A stretch of DNA of 6,136 nt, taken from IMG/VR virus record IMGVR_UViG_3300029541_000072, positions 1 through 6,136 of that record; one strand, written 5' to 3'. The stretch comes from a virus. How positions within the stretch are numbered: position 1 is the first letter of the stretch; every line of letters begins with the position of its first letter. The notes beneath the pieces were generated by a model. The model was not told the origin of the DNA and did not search any database. It saw only the letters and a program-made list of their open reading frames with translations. Below are positions 1-6,136 of this stretch, piece by piece. Made by a program: the position numbers and the translations under genes.

Positions 1-1305
1 TATGGTTCTTGTAAGATTTTGGATTTATTGGGTTATGGTTCATTTCTTGCTAGTGATAATATTTCTAAAAAGGCAATTACCAAATCATATTTAGGTCTTG
101 CTGATGTTGCCGATGTTGATAATCCTTTGGTTTATAAGTCTTCTCAGGTTGTAAATTTGCTTCCGCTATTGGCGTACCAGAAAGTCTATTTTGATTTTTT
201 CAGTAATTCTCAATGGGAAAAACATTTGGCCTATTCTTATAATGTTGATTATTGGGATGGAACGTCACAGTTGGCTGTTGTTCCTGATATGTTAAAGCTC
301 CGGTATGCTAATTACCCTAAAGACTATTTTATGGGTATACTTCCTAGTTCTCAGTACGGTTCGGTAGCGCTTCTTTCACCTCTTGACAGGACGCAACCGT
401 CTAATGTTGTTTTGGCTCGTACTACTGATGGCATAAGTACCTCGCCTGTTCGCAATCCTTCTGGCGGTGATATTGTTCAGACAACTTCATCTAATTCTGC
501 TAAATCCGATAGATTGCTTCGTGTTAATACCGACCTTTCTGCCCTTTCACTTCGTGCTACAGAATATCTCCAGCGTTGGAAAGAAGTAGTCCAGTTCTCT
601 AGTAAGGACTATTCTGATCAGATGTCAGCTCAATTTGGCATCAAGGCTCCTGAATATATGGGCAATCATTCTCATTATATTGGTGGTTGGTCTAATGTAA
701 TTAATATTAATGAGGTTCTTAATACAAATCTTTCTGCTGATAATTCTCAGGCTGTTATTGCTGGTAAAGGTGTTGGTTCTAATTCCGGCCATACTATTAC
801 TTATGATTGTGGTGCCGAGCATCAGGTGATTATTTGTGTTTATCATGCTGTTCCTTTGGTTGATTGGAATTTGACAGGTCAAAATCCTCAATTGACCGTT
901 TCTTCTATATCTGACTTTCCTCAACCTGCCTTTGATCAGTTGGGTATGCAGCCTGTCCCCGGCTTGAATCTTCATAATAATCCTAGTCGTTCTGTTTCTA
1001 CCTCAATTGGATATAATTTGCGTTATTGGCAATGGAAATCTAATATTGATACAGTTCATGCTGGTTTCCGTTCCGGTCTGGCTTACCAGTCTTGGTCCGC
1101 TCCTATTGATGGTTGGGATGTTTTGACTTCTTCTGGTTCTTGGTCTTATCAGTCCATGAAAGTCCGTCCTCAGCAATTGAATTCTATTTTTGAGCCTCAG
1201 GTTTCAGGCCAGAATTCTTCTGTTGCCTTTGATCAGTTATTGTGTAATGTTAATTTCCAAGTATATGCTGTCCAAAATTTGGACAGAAATGGTTTACCTT
1301 ATTAA
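1..1305 (+). CDS. Major capsid protein (Microviridae VP1/F family), C-terminal part. It continues in frame from 5603..6037 across the circular junction; the full protein is about 579 aa.
   Basis: Position 1 is in frame with the ORF starting at 19 and with 5603 (6038-5603 = 435, divisible by 3). The N-terminal part shows the typical microvirus MCP start (basic residues, F-x-L-S, G-E-I-L-P, P-G-N-K-Y, Y-D-F-Y-A-V-P-L-R). The track ORF 19..1305 is just the in-window tail. Confidence 0.88.
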   Translation, partial: YGSCKILDLLGYGSFLASDNISKKAITKSYLGLADVADVDNPLVYKSSQVVNLLPLLAYQKVYFDFFSNSQWEKHLAYSYNVDYWDGTSQLAVVPDMLKLRYANYPKDYFMGILPSSQYGSVALLSPLDRTQPSNVVLARTTDGISTSPVRNPSGGDIVQTTSSNSAKSDRLLRVNTDLSALSLRATEYLQRWKEVVQFSSKDYSDQMSAQFGIKAPEYMGNHSHYIGGWSNVININEVLNTNLSADNSQAVIAGKGVGSNSGHTITYDCGAEHQVIICVYHAVPLVDWNLTGQNPQLTVSSISDFPQPAFDQLGMQPVPGLNLHNNPSRSVSTSIGYNLRYWQWKSNIDTVHAGFRSGLAYQSWSAPIDGWDVLTSSGSWSYQSMKVRPQQLNSIFEPQVSGQNSSVAFDQLLCNVNFQVYAVQNLDRNGLPY

Positions 1306-1310
1306 TTTAG

Positions 1311-1757
1311 TTGATTATGAGAAGTTTTGCTTATATTAATCCCGATTTTATTCAGGATACTTATGTTCCTGTTAGTGTTGAAGATAATCCGTGTTATCAG
1401 CCGTCTGTTTATGATTCGGTTCTGTATGACGAACTTCCTGACGGTGATTTGATTCAGTGTGATATGACACAGATTCTTTTGAATCAGGAAAAATATCGTA
1501 ACCTGCTTGGTGATATGAATGTTCAGAACATTCTTGCCCAGATGCATCCTACTTCGTCTACTGCTATGGATAATATGACTGATGAAGAACGATTTAATTG
1601 TGTTATTTCGCGTCACTGTCAGACTATGTCTGAACGTCAGGCTGTTCTTAGAGAGTTGGCTAGCGAGCATTCTGAATTGTCTTCTTATGCTGAGTCTTTA
1701 TTGGCAGAGCAAAAGGCAGCGCCGTCTTCGGATCCCGCCCCTGCCTCTGCTGAATAA
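1311..1757 (+). CDS. Hypothetical 148-aa acidic protein between the MCP and pilot genes. It may be an internal scaffolding protein (VP3-like) or a spike/decoration protein; function unknown.
   Basis: Clean ORF on the coding strand with protein-like composition, rich in D/E and with a low-complexity A/P/S C-terminus. Its TAA stop at 1755-1757 shares a base with the ATG of the next gene (TAATG). Its position matches the small gene between F and H in phiX-like genomes and VP3 in gokushoviruses. Confidence 0.6.
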   Translation: MIMRSFAYINPDFIQDTYVPVSVEDNPCYQPSVYDSVLYDELPDGDLIQCDMTQILLNQEKYRNLLGDMNVQNILAQMHPTSSTAMDNMTDEERFNCVISRHCQTMSERQAVLRELASEHSELSSYAESLLAEQKAAPSSDPAPASAE

Positions 1758-2899
1758 TGGGCTTATTTGATGCTATTGCTTCTTCCGTAGGTAATCTTAC
1801 TGATAATGTTGTTGGTATGATTAACCAGAATCACCAGAATAAAGTCAATTTACGTATGATGCGCGAGCAAAATGATTTTAATGCAAAACAGGCTAGTCTA
1901 CAGCGTGATTGGCAAGAAGATATGTGGAATAAGAATAACGAGTATAATTCTCCTGAAGCAATGATTTCTCGAGGTTTAAACCCTTTTGTTGGTTCTTCTG
2001 CTGGTGCTGGTGTTTCTCGTTCTCCTGCCTCTGGTGGTGCTGCTGCTACCGCTGCTCCTGTTCCTAGTATGCAGGCATTTAAGCCTAATTTTTCCAATGT
2101 TTTTCAGTCACTCGCCTCTCTTGCTCAAGCCAGAGCTTCTAATGCTTCTGCTGGTGAGTCTGGTGCCCGTTCTAATCAGGTTGATACATTGACTCCTCTA
2201 TTGTCAGATTATTATAGAGGTCTTACTAATTGGAAGAATTTAGCGGTTGGTGAATCCGGTTATTGGAATAAGACGACAGGTCGTATATCTGCTGCCCTTG
2301 ACCAGTCTACTGAAGCTCAGAATTTGAGAAACGCTCAGTTCGCTGAACGTATTTCGGCCGCACAGGAAACGCAGATTTTGCTTAATTCTGAAGCTCAGCG
2401 TATTATGAATAAATATATGGACCAGAACCAACAAGCTGATTTGCTTATTAAGGCTCAAACCTTAGCCAATCTCCATTCCCAAGGTGCTCTTACTGAGAAG
2501 CAAATACAGACTGAAATTCAGCGTGCTATTCTTACTGCTGCTGAGGCTTCTGGTAAGAAAATTGACAATCATATAGCTTCCGAGACGGCTGACTCTTTGA
2601 TTAAGGCAGCTAAGGCCTCTAATGAATTGCAATATCGTGATTATACGTACGATTATGAGAATGTTAAGCTTCGTAAACATGCGGAGTATAAAACTTCTAT
2701 GGCTAATCAGAAAGCTGCTGAGTATGGTGCGGAATTGGCTCGTAAACAAGGACGTACTCATTATTGGGAATCTGTTGCTCGTGGTCTTGGTAGTATTGCT
2801 GCTGGTGCTGGTAATTTTATTGGCGCATTTCGTCCCGGTGCTAATATCTTTCGTAATGATTATGGTTCTCGTAATACTACTATTTATAATGGTCGGTAA
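1757..2899 (+). CDS. DNA pilot / minor capsid protein (VP2/H-like)
   Basis: The N-terminal block 'NDFNAKQASLQRDWQEDMWNKNNEYNSPEAMISRGLNP' fits the conserved gokushovirus VP2 signature (F-N-A..Q..R-D/E-W/F-Q-E..M..N..Y......G-L-N-P). It is followed by a Gly/Ala/Ser-rich low-complexity segment, a long Q/A/E-rich predicted coiled coil, and a C-terminal glycine zipper (GLGSIAAGAGNFIGAF). Confidence 0.8.
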   Translation: MGLFDAIASSVGNLTDNVVGMINQNHQNKVNLRMMREQNDFNAKQASLQRDWQEDMWNKNNEYNSPEAMISRGLNPFVGSSAGAGVSRSPASGGAAATAAPVPSMQAFKPNFSNVFQSLASLAQARASNASAGESGARSNQVDTLTPLLSDYYRGLTNWKNLAVGESGYWNKTTGRISAALDQSTEAQNLRNAQFAERISAAQETQILLNSEAQRIMNKYMDQNQQADLLIKAQTLANLHSQGALTEKQIQTEIQRAILTAAEASGKKIDNHIASETADSLIKAAKASNELQYRDYTYDYENVKLRKHAEYKTSMANQKAAEYGAELARKQGRTHYWESVARGLGSIAAGAGNFIGAFRPGANIFRNDYGSRNTTIYNGR

Positions 2900-2976
2900 A
2901 CATTCTTTAGGACTAGAAGCCCATCGCGGCGTTTGAGCGATATACACCCGCCGCCCGCGTAGGGCCTGATCGAAAA

Positions 2977-3102
2977 ATGGAGCGGAGCGACTTCCTTAGA
3001 GAAGCGTTCCGCTTCGGTATTTTAGCGCGTAGGCGCGCAAAGGCAAGACAGTTCCTGCCTTGCCGTGCCTATACACCCTGTATACATCCACTTGCTAATT
3101 AA
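2977..3102 (+). CDS. Candidate 41-aa arginine-rich micro-ORF (MERSDFLREAFRFGILARRRAKARQFLPCRAYTPCIHPLAN). It may be a J/VP8-like DNA-binding packaging protein.
   Basis: Hand translation gives ATG at 2977 and TAA at 3100-3102, with 9 Arg + 1 Lys against 3 acidic residues. Microviridae normally encode a very small basic DNA-binding protein (phiX174 J, gokushovirus VP8), and no other candidate is evident in this genome. Caveat: a GC-rich sequence will yield Arg codons by chance. Confidence 0.2.
   Translation: MERSDFLREAFRFGILARRRAKARQFLPCRAYTPCIHPLAN
3001..3024 (+). terminator. Candidate intrinsic terminator/hairpin: GAAGCG-TTC-CGCTTC followed by GGTATTTTA
   Basis: A perfect 6-bp GC-rich stem with a 3-nt loop lies about 100 nt downstream of the pilot-gene stop and is followed by a short T-tract. 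The T-tract is short and interrupted, so this is weak. Confidence 0.25.
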
Positions 3103-3129
3103 GCGAAGCCCCTAGTTGTGTGCGAAGCA

Positions 3130-3152
3130 AATCCGAGTTATCCTCTCGGATT
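3130..3152. repeat. Perfect inverted repeat / stem-loop AATCCGAG-(TTATCCT)-CTCGGATT
   Basis: An 8-bp perfect stem with a 7-nt loop, read directly from the sequence. It could be a complementary-strand origin, a primosome assembly site or a transcript-processing signal. Confidence 0.6.
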
Positions 3153-3219
3153 CTCCCTTCCCTTGTCCATAAACGCACAACTCACACTCCACGGTAGAAT
3201 CTAAAAAAAACAGTTTTTC

Positions 3220-3250
3220 TTTGGAATTATGATTTTAGTTCGTATATTTG
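3220..3250 (+). promoter_or_regulatory. Candidate Bacteroidetes sigma(ABfr)-type promoter: -33 TTTG (3220-3223), 19-nt spacer, -7 TAtaTTTG (3243-3250).
   Basis: It matches the published Bacteroides consensus TTTG-N19-21-TAnnTTTG. It lies about 50 nt upstream of the first ORF after the non-coding region (ATG 3302). It is consistent with the absence of Shine-Dalgarno motifs before every gene in the genome. Confidence 0.35.
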
Positions 3251-3301
3251 CTCCCAGTTAGAAGTTACAACTATTATTAACATTTTAAACATTTTACAAT
3301 T

Positions 3302-3514
3302 ATGCAAAGATTTATTATTTCTATTAAAGACAAAAATACTGGTCGTGATTTTATTTCGCCTTTTACTATCGATTCTCTTGATGGTTTTGGAGATTTTGTT
3401 GAGAGATTTACTTCATATGGTTGTCTTGTCATTATTGACTCGATTAAGGAGGAAAATGATTTCTTTGAGCTTTCACGTAAATTTGAACTATCTAAACCTG
3501 CTACTCATGAATAA
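3302..3514 (+). CDS. Hypothetical 70-aa acidic protein
   Basis: ORF with balanced, protein-like composition (13 D/E, 9 K/R) immediately downstream of the candidate promoter. Its stop overlaps the ATG of the next micro-ORF (ATGAATAA). I recognise no family. Confidence 0.5.
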   Translation: MQRFIISIKDKNTGRDFISPFTIDSLDGFGDFVERFTSYGCLVIIDSIKEENDFFELSRKFELSKPATHE

Positions 3515-3590
3515 GACTAATATTTGGAAAATCGTTATCGGTGCTGTTTCTGCTGCCTTAGGTTACATTCTTAATGCTATTGGACTATGA
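3507..3590 (+). CDS. Candidate 27-aa single-pass membrane peptide (MNKTNIWKIVIGAVSAALGYILNAIGL), a possible holin-/spanin-like partner of the downstream peptidase.
   Basis: ATG at 3507 overlaps the stop of the 70-aa ORF. Its own TGA (3588-3590) overlaps the ATG (3587-3589) of the peptidase gene (ATGA). It has a polar N-terminus (MNKTNIWK) followed by a roughly 19-residue hydrophobic helix. It is the C-terminal part of track ORF 3345..3590; the upstream Leu-rich portion overlaps the 70-aa ORF and is discounted. Confidence 0.3.
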   Translation: MNKTNIWKIVIGAVSAALGYILNAIGL

Positions 3591-3898
3591 ACTATACTCT
3601 TATGCATTTTCTTGAGTATTTGTTGTACTCTAATGTTCATTTTTCGGTGACTAGTGCTAGACGTACTCCTGAACAAAATAAGGCTTGCAATGGTTCCCCG
3701 AATTCTCAGCACCTTGTAGGCGAAGCTGTTGATATTAAGCCCTTTGGCTCTACTACATTTAATAAGTTGCTTGAAATGATTCATCTTTTTTCGGATAATG
3801 TTTCGCCATTTGACCAACTTATTATATATCCAACATTTATTCATATTTCGTTTTGCTCGCGTAACCGTCACCAAGTGATTGACAAACGTAATTATTAA
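3587..3898 (+). CDS. Zinc D-Ala-D-Ala carboxypeptidase-fold peptidase (Peptidase_M15 / LAS superfamily, M15_3-like); probable cell-wall hydrolase (endolysin).
   Basis: 'VHFSVTSARRTPEQNKACNGSPNSQHLVGEAVDI' fits the M15_3 core (S-x-x-R-s/t-P-E-x-N-x-A-x-G-G-x-x-N-S-Q-H-L-x-G-x-A-x-D-I), with the H-x6-D zinc-ligand pair. The C-terminal 'TFIHISF' matches the final His motif (fvHvD/S). Confidence 0.72.
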   Translation: MNYTLMHFLEYLLYSNVHFSVTSARRTPEQNKACNGSPNSQHLVGEAVDIKPFGSTTFNKLLEMIHLFSDNVSPFDQLIIYPTFIHISFCSRNRHQVIDKRNY

Positions 3899-3903
3899 TA
3901 ATT

Positions 3904-5583
3904 ATGAAATATTCTCCTGAATTGTTGAAAGCGGTTGACCATTGTCAACATCGTTCATTTATTACGAATAAGTACACTGGTACACGTATTGCCGTTGATT
4001 GTGGTCAATGCGATTATTGTATCCATAAGCGTGCTAAAAAAGCGTCCATACGAGTGAAGACTGCTGGAAGTGCTTTCAAGTATTCTTATTTTGTTACTCT
4101 TACGTATGATAATGCGAATCTTCCTCTTATGTATTGCAAGGTACTCCATAGTGAATATGAGGACGCTGTCGGCATTTCGGGAGATGTTCATTTTGGAAAT
4201 GAATACCATAATTACATTCCTGTTTCCGACTATCAATGTGATGATAACTCCGCGTTGCGTCATATATTCTTCGATCAGGTACAAGGTACTGTGCCGTTTG
4301 ACCGTGAGCTTAAGGAATATGTTCCTGTTAAGGATAATTGGTTTCTTTCTATGGATGCTATTCGTAGTTTTATCCATAAGACGCAAGCCCTTAACAAAAC
4401 GGACTATCCCGTTTCTGAACAATACGGCCGTGATAACCTTATTCCCTTTCTGAACTACGTTGATGTCCAGAACTATATAAAACGTTTACGTAAACATTTA
4501 TTTAAAAAATTAGGTTCTTATGAGACGTTACATTTTTACGCTGTGGGCGAGTATGGTCCTGTACACTTCCGTCCGCATTTCCATTTGTTATTATTCTCGA
4601 ACTCGAGCGAAGTCGCAAAGGTATTACGAGAATGTCACGATAAGAGTTGGAAACTCGGTCGTTCAGATTTCCAACATTCCGCTGGCGGAGCTGCGTCGTA
4701 CGTTGCGAGTTACGTTAACAGCCTTTGCTCTGCTCCCTTATTATATCGCTCATGCCGCTCGTTTAGACCCAAGTCGCGAGCATCTATTGGATTCTTTGAA
4801 AAAGGTTGCGATTTCGTGGAAGACGATGATCCTTATGCGCAAATTGAGGCAAAAATCGATTCTGTCGTTAATGGAAGATGCTACAACTTCGGCGGTTTCT
4901 GTGTTCGGTCAACTCCACCCATGTCGTATATCCGTACCTTACTCCCCCGATTCTCGTCTGCTCGCAATGACGATAGTACTGCGATTGCTCGAATTCTTTT
5001 CGCTGTTCACTCAACGCCAAAAAGGATTGCAAAATTCGGATTTGTAGATTATAAACAAGATTCGATTTTAGATCTTGTCCGTGTTTATTATCAATATCTT
5101 AAACTTAATCCTATTCTCACTGATGATGATAAGATTATATTACATAATGCTCGGTGCCTTACTAGGTTTGTTAACTTGTCTAGTGATGTTGACGTTCAGG
5201 CTTTTATTTCTAAGCTTTATCGGCTTTTCCTTTACGTTCATAAATTTTTTCGTAACTGGCATTTGCCTGATTTTGGTTCTAATATCGATTCTCGCTATGG
5301 TCGCGTTATGTTTATACTTAAAAAAGGCATAGAATATGAAACGAAAAAGAATTATGAAAGTTTACGAGATGCATATAGCCTCCGTTCCCAATACCCTGAT
5401 ATCTCAGATTGTATGTTTGCGTTGCCTCAGAATGGGCAGGAAATTGATGTCTTGCAGGCCGTATCGAGTGAAACGGTTCAACTCCTTGAGCAACTCCGGT
5501 ACCGTAGTTCGACATTCTGTCGTGATATGATTAAGCACAAAAAACTTAATGATGCTAACAATATATTTAACCGTATGGTCTAA
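3904..5583 (+). CDS. Rolling-circle replication initiator protein (Microviridae VP4/A-like, HUH superfamily I Rep)
   Basis: Motif I FVTLTYD (nt 4090-4110). Motif II HUH PHFHLLLF (H225 at 4576-4578, H227 at 4582-4584). Motif III with two catalytic Tyr, YVASYVN (Y266 at 4699-4701, Y270 at 4711-4713), is near-identical to phiX174 protein A YVAKYVN. The N-terminal Cys/His cluster (HCQH...CGQCDYCIH) is typical of VP4. Confidence 0.92.
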   Translation: MKYSPELLKAVDHCQHRSFITNKYTGTRIAVDCGQCDYCIHKRAKKASIRVKTAGSAFKYSYFVTLTYDNANLPLMYCKVLHSEYEDAVGISGDVHFGNEYHNYIPVSDYQCDDNSALRHIFFDQVQGTVPFDRELKEYVPVKDNWFLSMDAIRSFIHKTQALNKTDYPVSEQYGRDNLIPFLNYVDVQNYIKRLRKHLFKKLGSYETLHFYAVGEYGPVHFRPHFHLLLFSNSSEVAKVLRECHDKSWKLGRSDFQHSAGGAASYVASYVNSLCSAPLLYRSCRSFRPKSRASIGFFEKGCDFVEDDDPYAQIEAKIDSVVNGRCYNFGGFCVRSTPPMSYIRTLLPRFSSARNDDSTAIARILFAVHSTPKRIAKFGFVDYKQDSILDLVRVYYQYLKLNPILTDDDKIILHNARCLTRFVNLSSDVDVQAFISKLYRLFLYVHKFFRNWHLPDFGSNIDSRYGRVMFILKKGIEYETKKNYESLRDAYSLRSQYPDISDCMFALPQNGQEIDVLQAVSSETVQLLEQLRYRSSTFCRDMIKHKKLNDANNIFNRMV

Positions 5584-5602
5584 TTTTAAATTTTAATTAA
5601 TT

Positions 5603-6136
5603 ATGAGTGATTTTAATCCTTTGGACCGAGCTAAAATTAATGTTCATCGCTCGTCGTTCGATTTAAGTTCAAAGAAACTATTTTCCGCTAAAGTTGGTGA
5701 AATTTTACCTTGTTATTGGCAGATTGCTATTCCCGGTAATAAGTATCGTATTTCTTCTGATTGGTTTACCCGTACTGTCCCTGTTAATACGGCTGCTTAT
5801 ACCCGTATTAAAGAGTATTATGATTTTTACGCTGTGCCGTTACGTCTGATTTCCCGTGCTCTCCCGCAGGCATTTACCCAGATGTCTGATTATATGACCT
5901 CTGCCGATAGCGGTACTTCTAATACTAAGATGTTGTCTTCTGTACCTAATACATCTTTGCTTAATATTAGTAATACTCTTGCTCTTGCTGTCGGTTCTGG
6001 CTCTGATTTGCTTGATGATGCCGGTCTTCCGTTTTCATATGGTTCTTGTAAGATTTTGGATTTATTGGGTTATGGTTCATTTCTTGCTAGTGATAATATT
6101 TCTAAAAAGGCAATTACCAAATCATATTTAGGTCTT
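5603..6136 (+). CDS. Major capsid protein, N-terminal part. It runs off the window end into the duplicated region and continues at 1..1305.
   Basis: It starts 'MSDFNPLDRAKINVHRSSFDLSSKKLFSAKVGEILPCYWQIAIPGNKYRISSDWFTRTVPVNTAAYTRIKEYYDFYAVPLRL', the canonical microvirus MCP N-terminus. There is no in-frame stop before the window end, and 6038..6136 is identical to 1..99. Confidence 0.9.
   Translation, partial: MSDFNPLDRAKINVHRSSFDLSSKKLFSAKVGEILPCYWQIAIPGNKYRISSDWFTRTVPVNTAAYTRIKEYYDFYAVPLRLISRALPQAFTQMSDYMTSADSGTSNTKMLSSVPNTSLLNISNTLALAVGSGSDLLDDAGLPFSYGSCKILDLLGYGSFLASDNISKKAITKSYLGL
6038..6136. repeat. Terminal redundancy: 6038..6136 is an exact copy of 1..99, which fixes the circular genome unit length at 6037 bp.
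   Basis: Direct comparison of the first and last 99 bases of the window (tatggttcttgtaagattttggatttattgggttatggttc...ggtctt). Confidence 0.95.

Follow-up and report, generated by a model that had tools for sequence, protein, structure and literature searches.

The stretch of DNA analysed here (the window) comprises 6,136 nucleotides, positions 1 to 6,136 of the microvirus record IMGVR_UViG_3300029541_000072. The gene of the pilot protein VP2 (ORF 1757-2899, whose homologue is annotated as DNA pilot protein in relatives) is followed by about 400 nt that, as a sequence-only reading of this DNA had noticed, hold no long open reading frame; indeed, in the ORF list no frame from the end of VP2 at 2899 up to 3302, where the following gene lies, exceeds 41 aa. 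A search for tRNA and tmRNA found none. Within this gap, a conserved non-coding core of 276 nt begins 13 nt past the VP2 stop. Its GC content is 0.536 over 2912-3187 (0.506 over 2900-3219), compared to 0.396 for the genome, which ranks it 10th among 6037 segments of 276 nt; the 57-58% counted by hand over 2941..3060 was reproduced at 0.575. Further downstream lies a promoter of Bacteroidota type, recognised with the consensus of Bacteroides promoters, which we take to be established. It adjoins the element, outside the fold, and its TAnnTTTG is kept at the equivalent place in relatives and in distant clades. The host of this microvirus is probably a member of the Bacteroidota. The features of the locus are the following:

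2897..2899, plus strand: stop codon of VP2 (pilot protein)
2912..3187, plus strand: conserved non-coding core, 276 nt, the best-conserved part of the genome (alignments A1 and A2)
2923..2941, plus strand: hairpin H1 (ATCGC/GCGAT), replaced by ATCAC/GTGAT or ATCCC/GGGAT; 99.3% of cells pair
2939..2952, plus strand: invariant unpaired block GATATACACCCGCC, invariant columns in A1 and A2
2953..2965, plus strand: hairpin H2 (GCCC-GCGTA-GGGC), GCCC/GGGC replaced by GCCT/AGGC; 100% of cells pair
2982..2988, plus strand: mini-hairpin m1 GCGGAGC, a 2-bp stem with a GNA triloop; GCGAAGC in some relatives, the stem being invariant and the middle loop base alone varying
3001..3015, plus strand: hairpin H3 (GAAGCG-TTC-CGCTTC), followed by GGTATTTTAG; replaced by GGAGCG/CGCTCC or GGAC/GTCC, with loop TTC, CCC or CTC
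3025..3036, plus strand: hairpin H4 (GCGC-GTAG-GCGC), 100% of cells pair, with GCAC/GTGC in place of GCGC/GCGC in 41 of 56 sequences
3037..3068, plus strand: composite hairpin H5 (GCA..GGCAAG...CTTGCC.TGC) with a variable tip; outer pairs conserved and covarying, two alternative tips in relatives
3070..3093, plus strand: variable linker with a second TATACACC copy and the palindrome TGTATACA; absent from Dulem 242-type genomes
3098..3189, plus strand: 3' module, a three-way junction common to many microvirus clades (covariance model R1 and covariation)
3103..3109, plus strand: mini-hairpin m2 GCGAAGC; GCGAAGC, GCGTAGC, ACGAAGT, ATGAAAT or GTGAAAC according to the clade, with a covarying stem; 96.4% of cells pair
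3114..3121, plus strand: 5' strand of helix Pa, AGTTGTGT, pairing with 3175-3182
3122..3128, plus strand: mini-hairpin m3 GCGAAGC with a C-GAA-G core; outer pair covarying (GC 20, CG 32, AU 2)
3130..3152, plus strand: hairpin Pc (AATCCGAG-TTATCCT-CTCGGATT), an inverted repeat (I7); 8 of 8 pairs change on both sides across clades
3153..3168, plus strand: pyrimidine tract (3153-3161), then CTTGTCC (3162-3168), unpaired in the consensus structure; a candidate priming start or Rep nick site
3175..3187, plus strand: 3' strand of helix Pa (3175-3182), then the tail CACAC (3183-3187); a [G/C]ACA[C/G] tail is conserved
3220..3250, plus strand: Bacteroidota-type promoter for the downstream genes p70, peptidase and Rep, with TTTG at 3220-3223 and TATATTTG at 3243-3250, as seen in the sequence

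When folded both as RNA and as ssDNA, as had been suggested, a 316-nt stretch gave z = -4.3 with RNA parameters and -4.5 with DNA parameters, more than chance would give. Ten helices are backed by compensatory changes, and such substitutions occur in more than 100 genomes, so that the structure is kept with covariation in relatives. Across the whole element, 96.6% of cells pair, compared to 22-44% with slid partners, and for 17 pairs both sides change; similarly, the 3' module compared across clades pairs in 96.2% of cells, against 28-43%, with both sides changing in 16 of its 20 pairs. The fold belongs to the plus strand, since G.T cells exceed A.C cells in the module alignment (49 vs 8). A mutual-information scan of the element revealed no further helices, and a pseudoknot stem between 2916-2921 and 2928-2933 is weakly supported (80.7% of cells pair). 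Long-range pairings proposed by RNAalifold or by single-sequence folding, such as GCCC 2919 with GGGC 2962, came without covariation support and were discarded.

A hidden gene is ruled out, as no ORF is conserved and the frames are inconsistent among relatives. In the element alignment, the longest stop-free run in any frame has a median of 63 codons, and the lengths of gap runs modulo 3 equal 1 in 1091 cases, 0 in 264 and 2 in 255. The lack of a conserved ORF, indels that are mostly not multiples of three and the strong covariation thus place the constraint on nucleic-acid structure instead of coding, as the sequence-only reading had proposed. What would have spoken against that proposal, namely a poorly conserved and structure-free region or a divergent coding one, is not what the relatives display: the region is conserved and folded and contains no intact ORF. 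The individual elements it had listed are all present where it had placed them, including the hairpins at 3001-3015 (GAAGCG/CGCTTC) and 3042-3064, the perfect 8-bp stem at 3130-3152, the 9-bp direct repeat TATACACCC at 2941 and 3070, the palindrome TGTATACA at 3079-3086 and the GCGAAGC duplication, with copies at 3103 and 3122. A hairpin was rightly placed at 3025-3038, but its pairing had been given as GCGCG/CGCGC; relatives with GCAC...GTGC show that the true register is GCRC/GYGC (3025-3028 with 3033-3036). Two aspects had escaped attention, the division of the region into a 5' domain confined to the clade and a 3' module of 92 nt with a wide distribution, and the motif CTYGTC, which resembles a nick or priming site.

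In the 5' domain, TATACACC lies within the invariant block GATATACACCCGCC and recurs at 3070-3077 (direct repeat D1), in the linker 3070..3093, where about 17 of 115 relatives carry an extra covarying hairpin of 27-45 nt. In the 3' module, helix Pa changes from GTTGTGT/GCACAAC to GTTCAAT/GTTGAAC and ACTTTTGC/GCAAAAGT among relatives, while a T.G pair at its inner end is invariant within the clade. The closing C-G of m3 is invariant in 55 of 55 sequences, and the outer pair of the same mini-hairpin has the top mutual information of the whole element. The unpaired motif CTtGTc, located 10-13 nt 3' of Pc, is conserved at at least 90% across clades, and CTYGTC is found here in essentially all 110 clade genomes. 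In 53 of 56 modules, the end of the [G/C]ACA[C/G] tail is reached 22-23 nt past the G of CTYG.

Mini-hairpins of the form XCGNAGX' are 16-fold enriched in the element, with 9.4 per kb compared to 0.59 per kb outside it in the 110 genomes; the window itself has three in 276 nt for 0.26 expected (P ~0.002). Their stems covary and the C-GNA-G core is kept. As DNA, d(GCGAAGC) and d(GCGAAAGC) form extraordinarily stable mini-hairpins, whereas the RNA form is much weaker, r(GCGAAAGC) having a Tm of 39 C, and fragments bearing such mini-hairpins are poor SSB binders (PMC13037366). They are known at the primase origins of G4, St-1 and alpha3, at RSF1010 ssiA and at the N4 single-strand promoters (PMC13037366).

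The invariant block GATATACACCCGCC served as search pattern for relatives, and the element was found at the same position after VP2 in 34 GenBank microviruses and 109 IMG/VR microvirus contigs; in all relatives it lies between VP2 and the Rep-side genes. The gene modules flanking it have been reassorted among relatives. Across 110 genomes its DNA is 76-99% identical, and the proteins of these genomes are 44-60% (VP1), 43-87% (VP2) and 58-85% (Rep) identical. More distant clades were gathered with a reordered Rep alignment, single-protein Rep queries from distant clades having yielded few loci. The covariance model of the 3' module, R1, scores 101.3 bits at 3098-3189. Of 53 distant microvirus genomes, whose Rep is 25-40% identical, 45 have a single full-length match to it, on the plus strand. 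These clades carry, at the equivalent place, non-homologous regions rich in mini-hairpins, each ending in the shared 3' module. The module is present wherever these related Rep proteins occur, and the 5' domain (2912-3097) is an accessory specific to the clade.

Outside these phages, R1 found no match in 736 kb of bacterial DNA and nothing real in the gokushoviruses Chp2 and phiMH2K or the coliphages phiX174 and G4, and no homologue was present among 72,556 plasmids. A metagenome scan with a strict module pattern gave nine chance matches, none of which was confirmed by R1. Likewise, a search of bacterial genomes with a 16-nt pattern showed the element in none of the 120 loci among the matches listed, and where a contig exceeds the length of one genome, it is a concatemer of related genomes and not a prophage. 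We found no paper describing the element.

In the mammalian gut, microviruses count among the most abundant phages. Nearly all of those that infect Bacteroidales are uncultured, and we know of no replication start site for them. We give about an even chance to the reading in which the island is a replication-origin region that works as folded ssDNA on the packaged (plus) strand; it would probably be a minus-strand priming signal and may also hold a Rep nick site. Among the four roles that had been put forward for the island, that of a minus-strand origin or primosome hairpins is the best supported, on account of the GNA mini-hairpins, the plus-strand-specific fold and an anatomy similar to that of G4.

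The G4 oric, as those of St-1 and alpha3, is intergenic on the viral strand of a microvirus and includes several stable hairpins, one of which bears a GCGAAAGC or GCGTTAGC mini-hairpin, compared to three mini-hairpins here. Viral-strand hairpins including a GCGNAGC or GCGNNAGC mini-hairpin, at a non-coding location of the packaged strand, thus characterise both. In the annotated G4 record, hairpin I with GCGAAAGC is followed by TCCCTA, then by CTG, and the RNA primer copies 3970-3997. The order of hairpin, pyrimidine tract and CT(N)G is also that of the present element, with Pc and m3, the pyrimidine tract and CTTG. However, in G4 primer synthesis starts at a CTG directly 3' of the hairpin and runs back into the latter, whereas the motif here is CTYGTC and not CTG; two mini-hairpins belong to the three-way junction that forms the present core, the element has about twice the length of the G4 origin, and its host is probably a Bacteroidota. 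The R1 search brought no sequence or profile homology to the G4 oric, and since R1 run without filters returned nothing significant in G4, the element is an analogue of G4-type complementary-strand origins and not a member of them.

The F-G intergenic region of phiX174, which we take to hold the PriA (n') primosome assembly site, is also a hairpin-forming viral-strand stretch with GCGAAGC. The long non-coding hairpin regions of other ssDNA replicons, the f1/M13 intergenic region and the sso of rolling-circle plasmids, function on one strand only and are recognised by RNA polymerase through promoter-like hairpins, but have no sequence or architectural homology to the element. The phiX174 F-G region starts complementary-strand synthesis (PMC9865509); it consists of one hairpin, about 55 nt in length, to which PriA is directed, and differs by the lack of a three-way junction, of CTYGTC and ACAC motifs and of homology. 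In the reekeekee- and roodoodoo-microviruses, intergenic hairpins next to Rep that show compensatory substitutions were proposed as minus-strand origins (PMC9865509). These are one or two simple hairpins of 13-64 nt in the smallest microviruses, compared to 276 nt, ten helices and a 92-nt junction shared across clades here.

We infer that the folded molecule is DNA and that it takes part in priming. After entry, the viral strand would be coated by host SSB, and the hairpins should withstand melting, in particular the mini-hairpins with GNA loops, which are very stable. The junction 3098-3189 would keep a pyrimidine-rich stretch of about 22 nt with CTYGTC (3153-3174) open and fixed in position. 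Complementary-strand synthesis might begin there through host primase, the PriA primosome or RNA polymerase, the machinery copying leftwards through the pyrimidine tract; the exact start that we propose for the primer is a guess. CTYG may double as the nick or termination site of Rep (VP4), which would make a combined origin comparable to the intergenic region of filamentous phages. In f1, that region combines the minus- and plus-strand origins. Some observations go against the origin reading. Variants of m2 such as ATGAAAT and GTGAAGC would not be unusually stable as DNA, because their stems have A-T/T-A or T.G pairs, and the invariant T.G of Pa is more typical of RNA. Furthermore, the motif CTTG and its spacing suit nicking by Rep just as well as priming.

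It is conceivable, though on balance unlikely, that the 3' module is mainly a plus-strand origin at which Rep (VP4) nicks after G3165 of CTYG. Rep would recognise the following 22-23 nt ending in ACAC and, once the site is regenerated, would terminate every round by cutting it again on the plus strand that has been displaced and folded, which is compatible with a minus-strand origin in the 5' domain. The viral-strand origin of phiX174, GCTCCCCCAACTTG^ATATTAATAACACTATAGACCAC (nick annotated at 4305/4306), is directly followed by the mini-hairpin CCCCGAAGGGG. Its 30 nt resemble the present site in that CTTG comes after a run of pyrimidines and before AT-rich sequence, about 23 nt extend to the end of GAC(C)AC, and a CGAAG mini-hairpin adjoins. 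The layout here, TTCTCCCTTCCCTTG-TCCATAAACGCACAACTCACAC, is of this kind, and 22-23 nt separate the G from the end of ACA[C/G] in 53 of 56 modules; in phiX174, the roughly 23 nt 3' of the nick that recognition requires end in GACCAC. In addition, CTYG lies in the sole long unpaired strand of the junction, CTTGATA is conserved nowhere else in the clade, and the module accompanies related Rep proteins wherever they are found. On the contrary, the phiX174-type core CAACTTG^ATA is lacking, as CTTG (3162-3165) is followed by TCC and the bases after the G are thus TC and not ATA as in phiX174 and pC194. For the pC194 nick site, ATA after the G is our assumption. The intervening bases here covary as a helix, and the stretch that Rep would have to recognise is the 3' strand of Pa, which varies freely provided that the pairs are maintained. 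Extruding a three-way junction that is particular to one strand from the double-stranded RF is also hard. The phiX174 origin lies within gene A instead of between genes and has no covarying junction, and after the G the likeness to it amounts to 9 of 22 bases, a level that chance might produce.

The island could also be a structured non-coding RNA, which would form the 3' UTR of the VP1-VP2 transcript or be cut from that transcript as a small RNA. It might confer stability on the message or interact with a factor of the host or the phage; we regard this reading as rather improbable. The folded strand is the transcribed one and no terminator separates the VP2 stop from the element. Since the plus strand is also the mRNA-sense strand, the covariation and the tolerance of G.T pairs, one of them invariant, fit RNA equally well. 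The 276-nt core has a complex architecture that combines numerous helices with unpaired blocks that are invariant, and folding with RNA parameters is significant (z = -4.3). However, none of 4227 Rfam families matches; a permissive scan of 2700-3500 with Rfam 15 gave at best mir-383 (17.5 bits, gathering score 70, E = 0.72). Triloops on 2-bp stems, which make up the majority of the hairpin loops, are a motif of DNA stability that is much weaker as RNA (PMC13037366), and loops dominated by GNRA or UNCG are absent. Upstream of the element there is no conserved promoter that would serve it, the position of the conserved module is immediately 5' of a promoter and outside known mRNA leaders, and the closest parallels are origins of ssDNA replicons. 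For a structured ncRNA, one of the roles suggested earlier, a match in Rfam is thus lacking and the triloop mini-hairpins are a poor fit. Should a structured RNA of about 276 nt be real, it would be the first ncRNA family of the Microviridae, its 92-nt junction binding a host or phage factor. In a variant reading, also fairly improbable, this junction would have two uses as DNA, one in priming on the strand that enters and one in nicking and termination by Rep; a compact dual origin of this kind is not known for microviruses.

It is very unlikely that the element consists of terminators closing the structural-gene operon. The location between the last structural gene and the next promoter would suit them, and H3 (3001-3015), which with the following GGTATTTTAG matches a terminator scan, is weakly terminator-like. 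However, its T-run is short and interrupted, Dulem 241-type relatives lack the hairpin, and the remaining nine helices have no T-run. The window contains four terminator-like sites compared to 4.5 in shuffles, and termination requires neither invariant unpaired blocks nor a three-way junction. We rejected this reading, which could at most cover the hairpin 3001-3015 and fails for the other hairpins.

A dif site is 28 bp long, with two 11-bp arms around a 6-bp centre. The suggestion that the element is a dif-like attP for lysogeny through host XerC/D, or another recombination site, is hardly credible and was rejected: prophages of Bacteroidales microviruses flanked by dif-like sites do exist (PMC3091885), the flanking gene modules are reassorted and the element contains TGTATA, but the 28-nt consensus with up to three mismatches has no match in the window, its 14-nt core matches only outside the element at the chance rate, the TGTATACA segment is deleted in several relatives and hence dispensable, no prophage context was seen, the longer contigs being concatemers, none of the 120 bacterial loci among the matches listed contains the element, and a 28-bp site cannot account for 276 nt of covarying structure. 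We take TGTATA to be the central hexamer of the E. coli dif.

The element thus offers a precise and testable origin candidate, whose 92-nt junction occurs once per genome across clades with Rep identities of 25-40%, and it extends the GNA mini-hairpin, so characteristic of the origins of the classic coliphages, to a host phylum far from theirs. These phages can be detected sensitively with R1, and the element might be of use as an origin cassette for ssDNA vectors in Bacteroides. Hypothetical proteins that have been annotated automatically over the element could be corrected.

The window spans a complete microvirus genome, circular and 6037 nt long; bases 1-99 recur at 6038-6136 as a 99-nt terminal overlap from assembly. 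All its genes are carried by the plus strand:

Spanning the window end, plus strand: major capsid protein VP1
1311-1757, plus strand: 148-aa protein
1757-2899, plus strand: pilot protein VP2
2900-3301: gap without a gene
3220-3250: Bacteroidota-type promoter (TTTG at 3220-3223, 19 nt, TATATTTG at 3243-3250), about 35 nt downstream of the 3' module of the gap
3302-3514, plus strand: 70-aa ORF (p70)
3587-3898, plus strand: Peptidase_M15 protein of 103 aa (Pfam Peptidase_M15_3, E = 1.3e-08)
3904-5583, plus strand: replication initiator Rep (Pfam REP_ORF2-G2P match)

The peptidase gene, which sits between the non-coding element (2912-3187) and Rep and is missing in some relatives, probably encodes a cell-wall hydrolase for lysis or entry. 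The promoter keeps its place behind the element both in this clade and in distant ones, and by its position the element marks the boundary between structural and Rep-side genes. This conserved Bacteroidota-type promoter suggests that the host belongs to the Bacteroidales.

A sequence-only reading had singled out the gap as GC-rich, hairpin-dense and devoid of long ORFs, and the features that it listed were all found in the window, save the register of one hairpin. Indeed, no ORF exceeds 41 aa in 2900-3301, and GC content, 0.396 in the whole genome, rises to 0.575 over 2941-3060 and to 0.536 over the core 2912-3187, which ranks in the top 10 among 6037 windows of the same size. The hairpin at 3025-3038 is present, but it pairs as GCRC/GYGC (3025-3028 with 3033-3036) and not in the register proposed.

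Among GenBank phages, the region was matched by blastn in 34 microviruses (identity 70-91%) from dog faeces, lemurs and one human vaginal sample, and in the two closest genomes its identity exceeds the genome-wide value of 78-79%. A 21-nt pattern from the element matched 109 IMG/VR microvirus contigs. In 110 of 110 genomes analysed, the element lies between VP2 and the p70/peptidase/Rep block with 76-99% DNA identity to the window, compared to protein identities of 44-60% for VP1, 43-87% for VP2 and 58-85% for Rep, so that conservation in these genomes peaks in this non-coding island. A hidden gene is ruled out by short stop-free runs in inconsistent frames and by indels that are mostly not multiples of three, as expected from the earlier suggestion of a constraint other than coding.

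The proposed constraint on structure is likewise borne out, both by folding of a 316-nt stretch (z = -4.3 as RNA and -4.5 as DNA vs shuffled controls) and by covariation in related genomes. Ten helices are supported in an alignment of 56 sequences of less than 91% pairwise identity, with standard pairs in 96.6% of cells, falling to 22-44% after sliding of the 3' partners by 1-3 columns, and with two-sided changes in seventeen pairs (166 cells). A mutual-information scan of 115 sequences recovered the same helices and none beyond them; a pseudoknot candidate at 2916-2933 received weak support. Helices are separated by invariant unpaired blocks, such as GATATACACCCGCC at 2939-2952, and the linker 3070-3093, with the palindrome TGTATACA (3079-3086), is variable and deleted in some relatives. 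About 17 of the 115 relatives (e.g., L002, L012, L044, L048) carry in this linker, at a place matching window position ~3093, a hairpin insertion of 27-45 nt (CCTAGATCTATTAGTAATGGATCTAGG) that shows compensatory changes of its own.

In microvirus clades that share the gene order but have a Rep only 25-30% identical, the post-VP2 gaps of 175-820 nt are non-homologous to the window for the greater part of their length, yet end in the architecture of 3098-3189. This 3' module comprises, in order, mini-hairpin m2 (3103-3109), the 5' strand of helix Pa (3114-3121, pairing with 3175-3182), mini-hairpin m3 (3122-3128), hairpin Pc (3130-3152), a pyrimidine tract, CTYGTC, an AT-rich stretch, the 3' strand of Pa and a tail [G/C]ACA[C/G]. 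A covariance model of 93 positions built on it, R1, gave a single full-length plus-strand match in 45 of 53 distant-clade microvirus genomes (E 1e-6 to 1e-17), no match in 736 kb of bacterial DNA at a cutoff as lax as E = 10, none in phiX174 and other phage loci, and nothing real in G4, Chp2 and phiMH2K. In the cross-clade alignment, which was fitted to R1, 96.2% of cells pair (28-43% when slid) and 16 of 20 pairs changed on both sides; an independent MAFFT alignment gave 93.2% (25-42% when slid). Single sequences of four clades, folded thermodynamically, yielded Pa and Pc unaided. The excess of G.T over A.C cells in the module (49 vs 8) assigns the fold to the plus strand.

The 7-mer X-C-G-N-A-G-X' (X' being the complement of X), a 2-bp stem with a GNA triloop, has a density of 9.4 per kb within the element vs 0.59 per kb outside (110 genomes), and is present three times in the 276 nt of the window element against 0.26 expected. 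Its stems covary (GCGAAGC, CCGAAGG, ACGAAGT), and m3 has the same closing C-G in 55/55 sequences. Such mini-hairpin motifs are known from G4, St-1 and alpha3, at whose primase origins they occur, and are also present in RSF1010 ssiA (CCGAAGG) and in N4 single-strand promoters (PMC13037366). In the G4 record, hairpin I with GCGAAAGC is followed by TCCCTA and then CTG, the RNA primer being annotated over 3970-3997; the element has the same order of stable hairpins, single-stranded pyrimidine tract and CT(Y)G, for CTG in G4. GCGAAGC is also held by the phiX174 F-G intergenic region (2357-2363 of L347, the phiX174 sequence). As a candidate origin, the element is of a known kind, the mini-hairpin-bearing hairpin origins of ssDNA phages; new in this family, of which no description was found in the literature searched, are its architecture and its occurrence in a different host phylum.

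That the module is a plus-strand origin, a reading compatible with a dual origin region, appears possible although rather unlikely. In 53 of 56 modules, the pyrimidine tract and CTTG precede 22-23 nt ending in ACAC, much as 23 nt follow the nick (^) in the phiX174 origin GCTCCCCCAACTTG^ATATTAATAACACTATAGACCAC, directly after which comes the mini-hairpin CCCCGAAGGGG (L347 4331-4341), and the clade conserves no CTTGATA at any other place. However, the G is followed by ATA in phiX174 and by TC in the element, and the presumed recognition sequence shows the covariation of a helix.

As the plus strand is packaged and also has mRNA sense, covariation does not distinguish between folded DNA and folded RNA. 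What points to DNA is the loops: extraordinary stability is described for d(GCGAAGC) and d(GCGAAAGC), compared to a much weaker RNA form (Tm of 39 C for r(GCGAAAGC)), and SSB binds mini-hairpin-carrying DNA poorly (PMC13037366). A structured RNA, which these loops fit poorly, is doubtful, the family being absent from Rfam and a promoter of its own not being conserved. A terminator, also suggested at first, would account for one weak hairpin at most and is highly improbable; the proposed dif-like attP or Xer site was rejected.

In the best-supported reading, a hairpin origin that primes the complementary strand, the module would act on an incoming viral strand coated by SSB, on which the junction and the mini-hairpins would stay folded and expose 3153-3174. 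The host priming machinery would then begin at CTYGTC and copy the pyrimidine tract leftwards, yielding a purine-rich primer. The 5' domain (2912-3097), which contains the TATACACC repeat (2941 and 3070), would be a clade-specific accessory and might offer additional landing sites free of SSB, or be bound by Rep or a host protein.

The 5' domains of other clades (L252 3529-4162, L251 3581-3971, L305 upstream of 6564) are non-homologous to the window, and are also GC-rich and packed with mini-hairpins; bajarodmic virus 466 has 6 in its 634-nt 5' domain vs 2 in the remaining genome. GAAG of m3 is able to pair with CTTC of the pyrimidine tract (3153-3160); similarly, in CCGAAGG-type relatives (L004-type), CCG can pair with CGG at 3153-3155, and position 3122 correlates with 3154. 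This alternative could be a conformational switch or a mere by-product of composition. Behind the module (window 3188-3215), this clade has three types of tail, namely GGTAGAATCT or GTAGAATAA followed by an A-run, and ATCAYAAATGGTCCTCTCCCCACAATT.

In Dulem virus 242 (L004 1458-1784, PP511392.1), the element is covered in the GenBank annotation by a 109-aa hypothetical protein (XCD03858.1), an ORF that is not kept in relatives and is probably spurious. Dulem 254 and 255 (L006, L007 1360-1512) harbor upstream an extra insert of ~160 nt that contains a 51-aa ORF and a promoter-like TATCTTTG of its own. In genomes L012-L120, VP1, VP2, peptidase and Rep differ independently of one another in their identity to the window (84% for VP1, 50% for VP2 and 91% for Rep in L029; 45, 86 and 82% in L022). 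These genomes are mosaics with the element between reassorting modules, and it may be a recombination hotspot. IMG/VR contigs of this clade above ~6.5 kb (L023, L027, L032, L042, L064, L120, L275, L276, L314) combine two related genomes as concatemers or chimeras, in some cases with two different copies of the element, and represent assembly artefacts of co-occurring strains.
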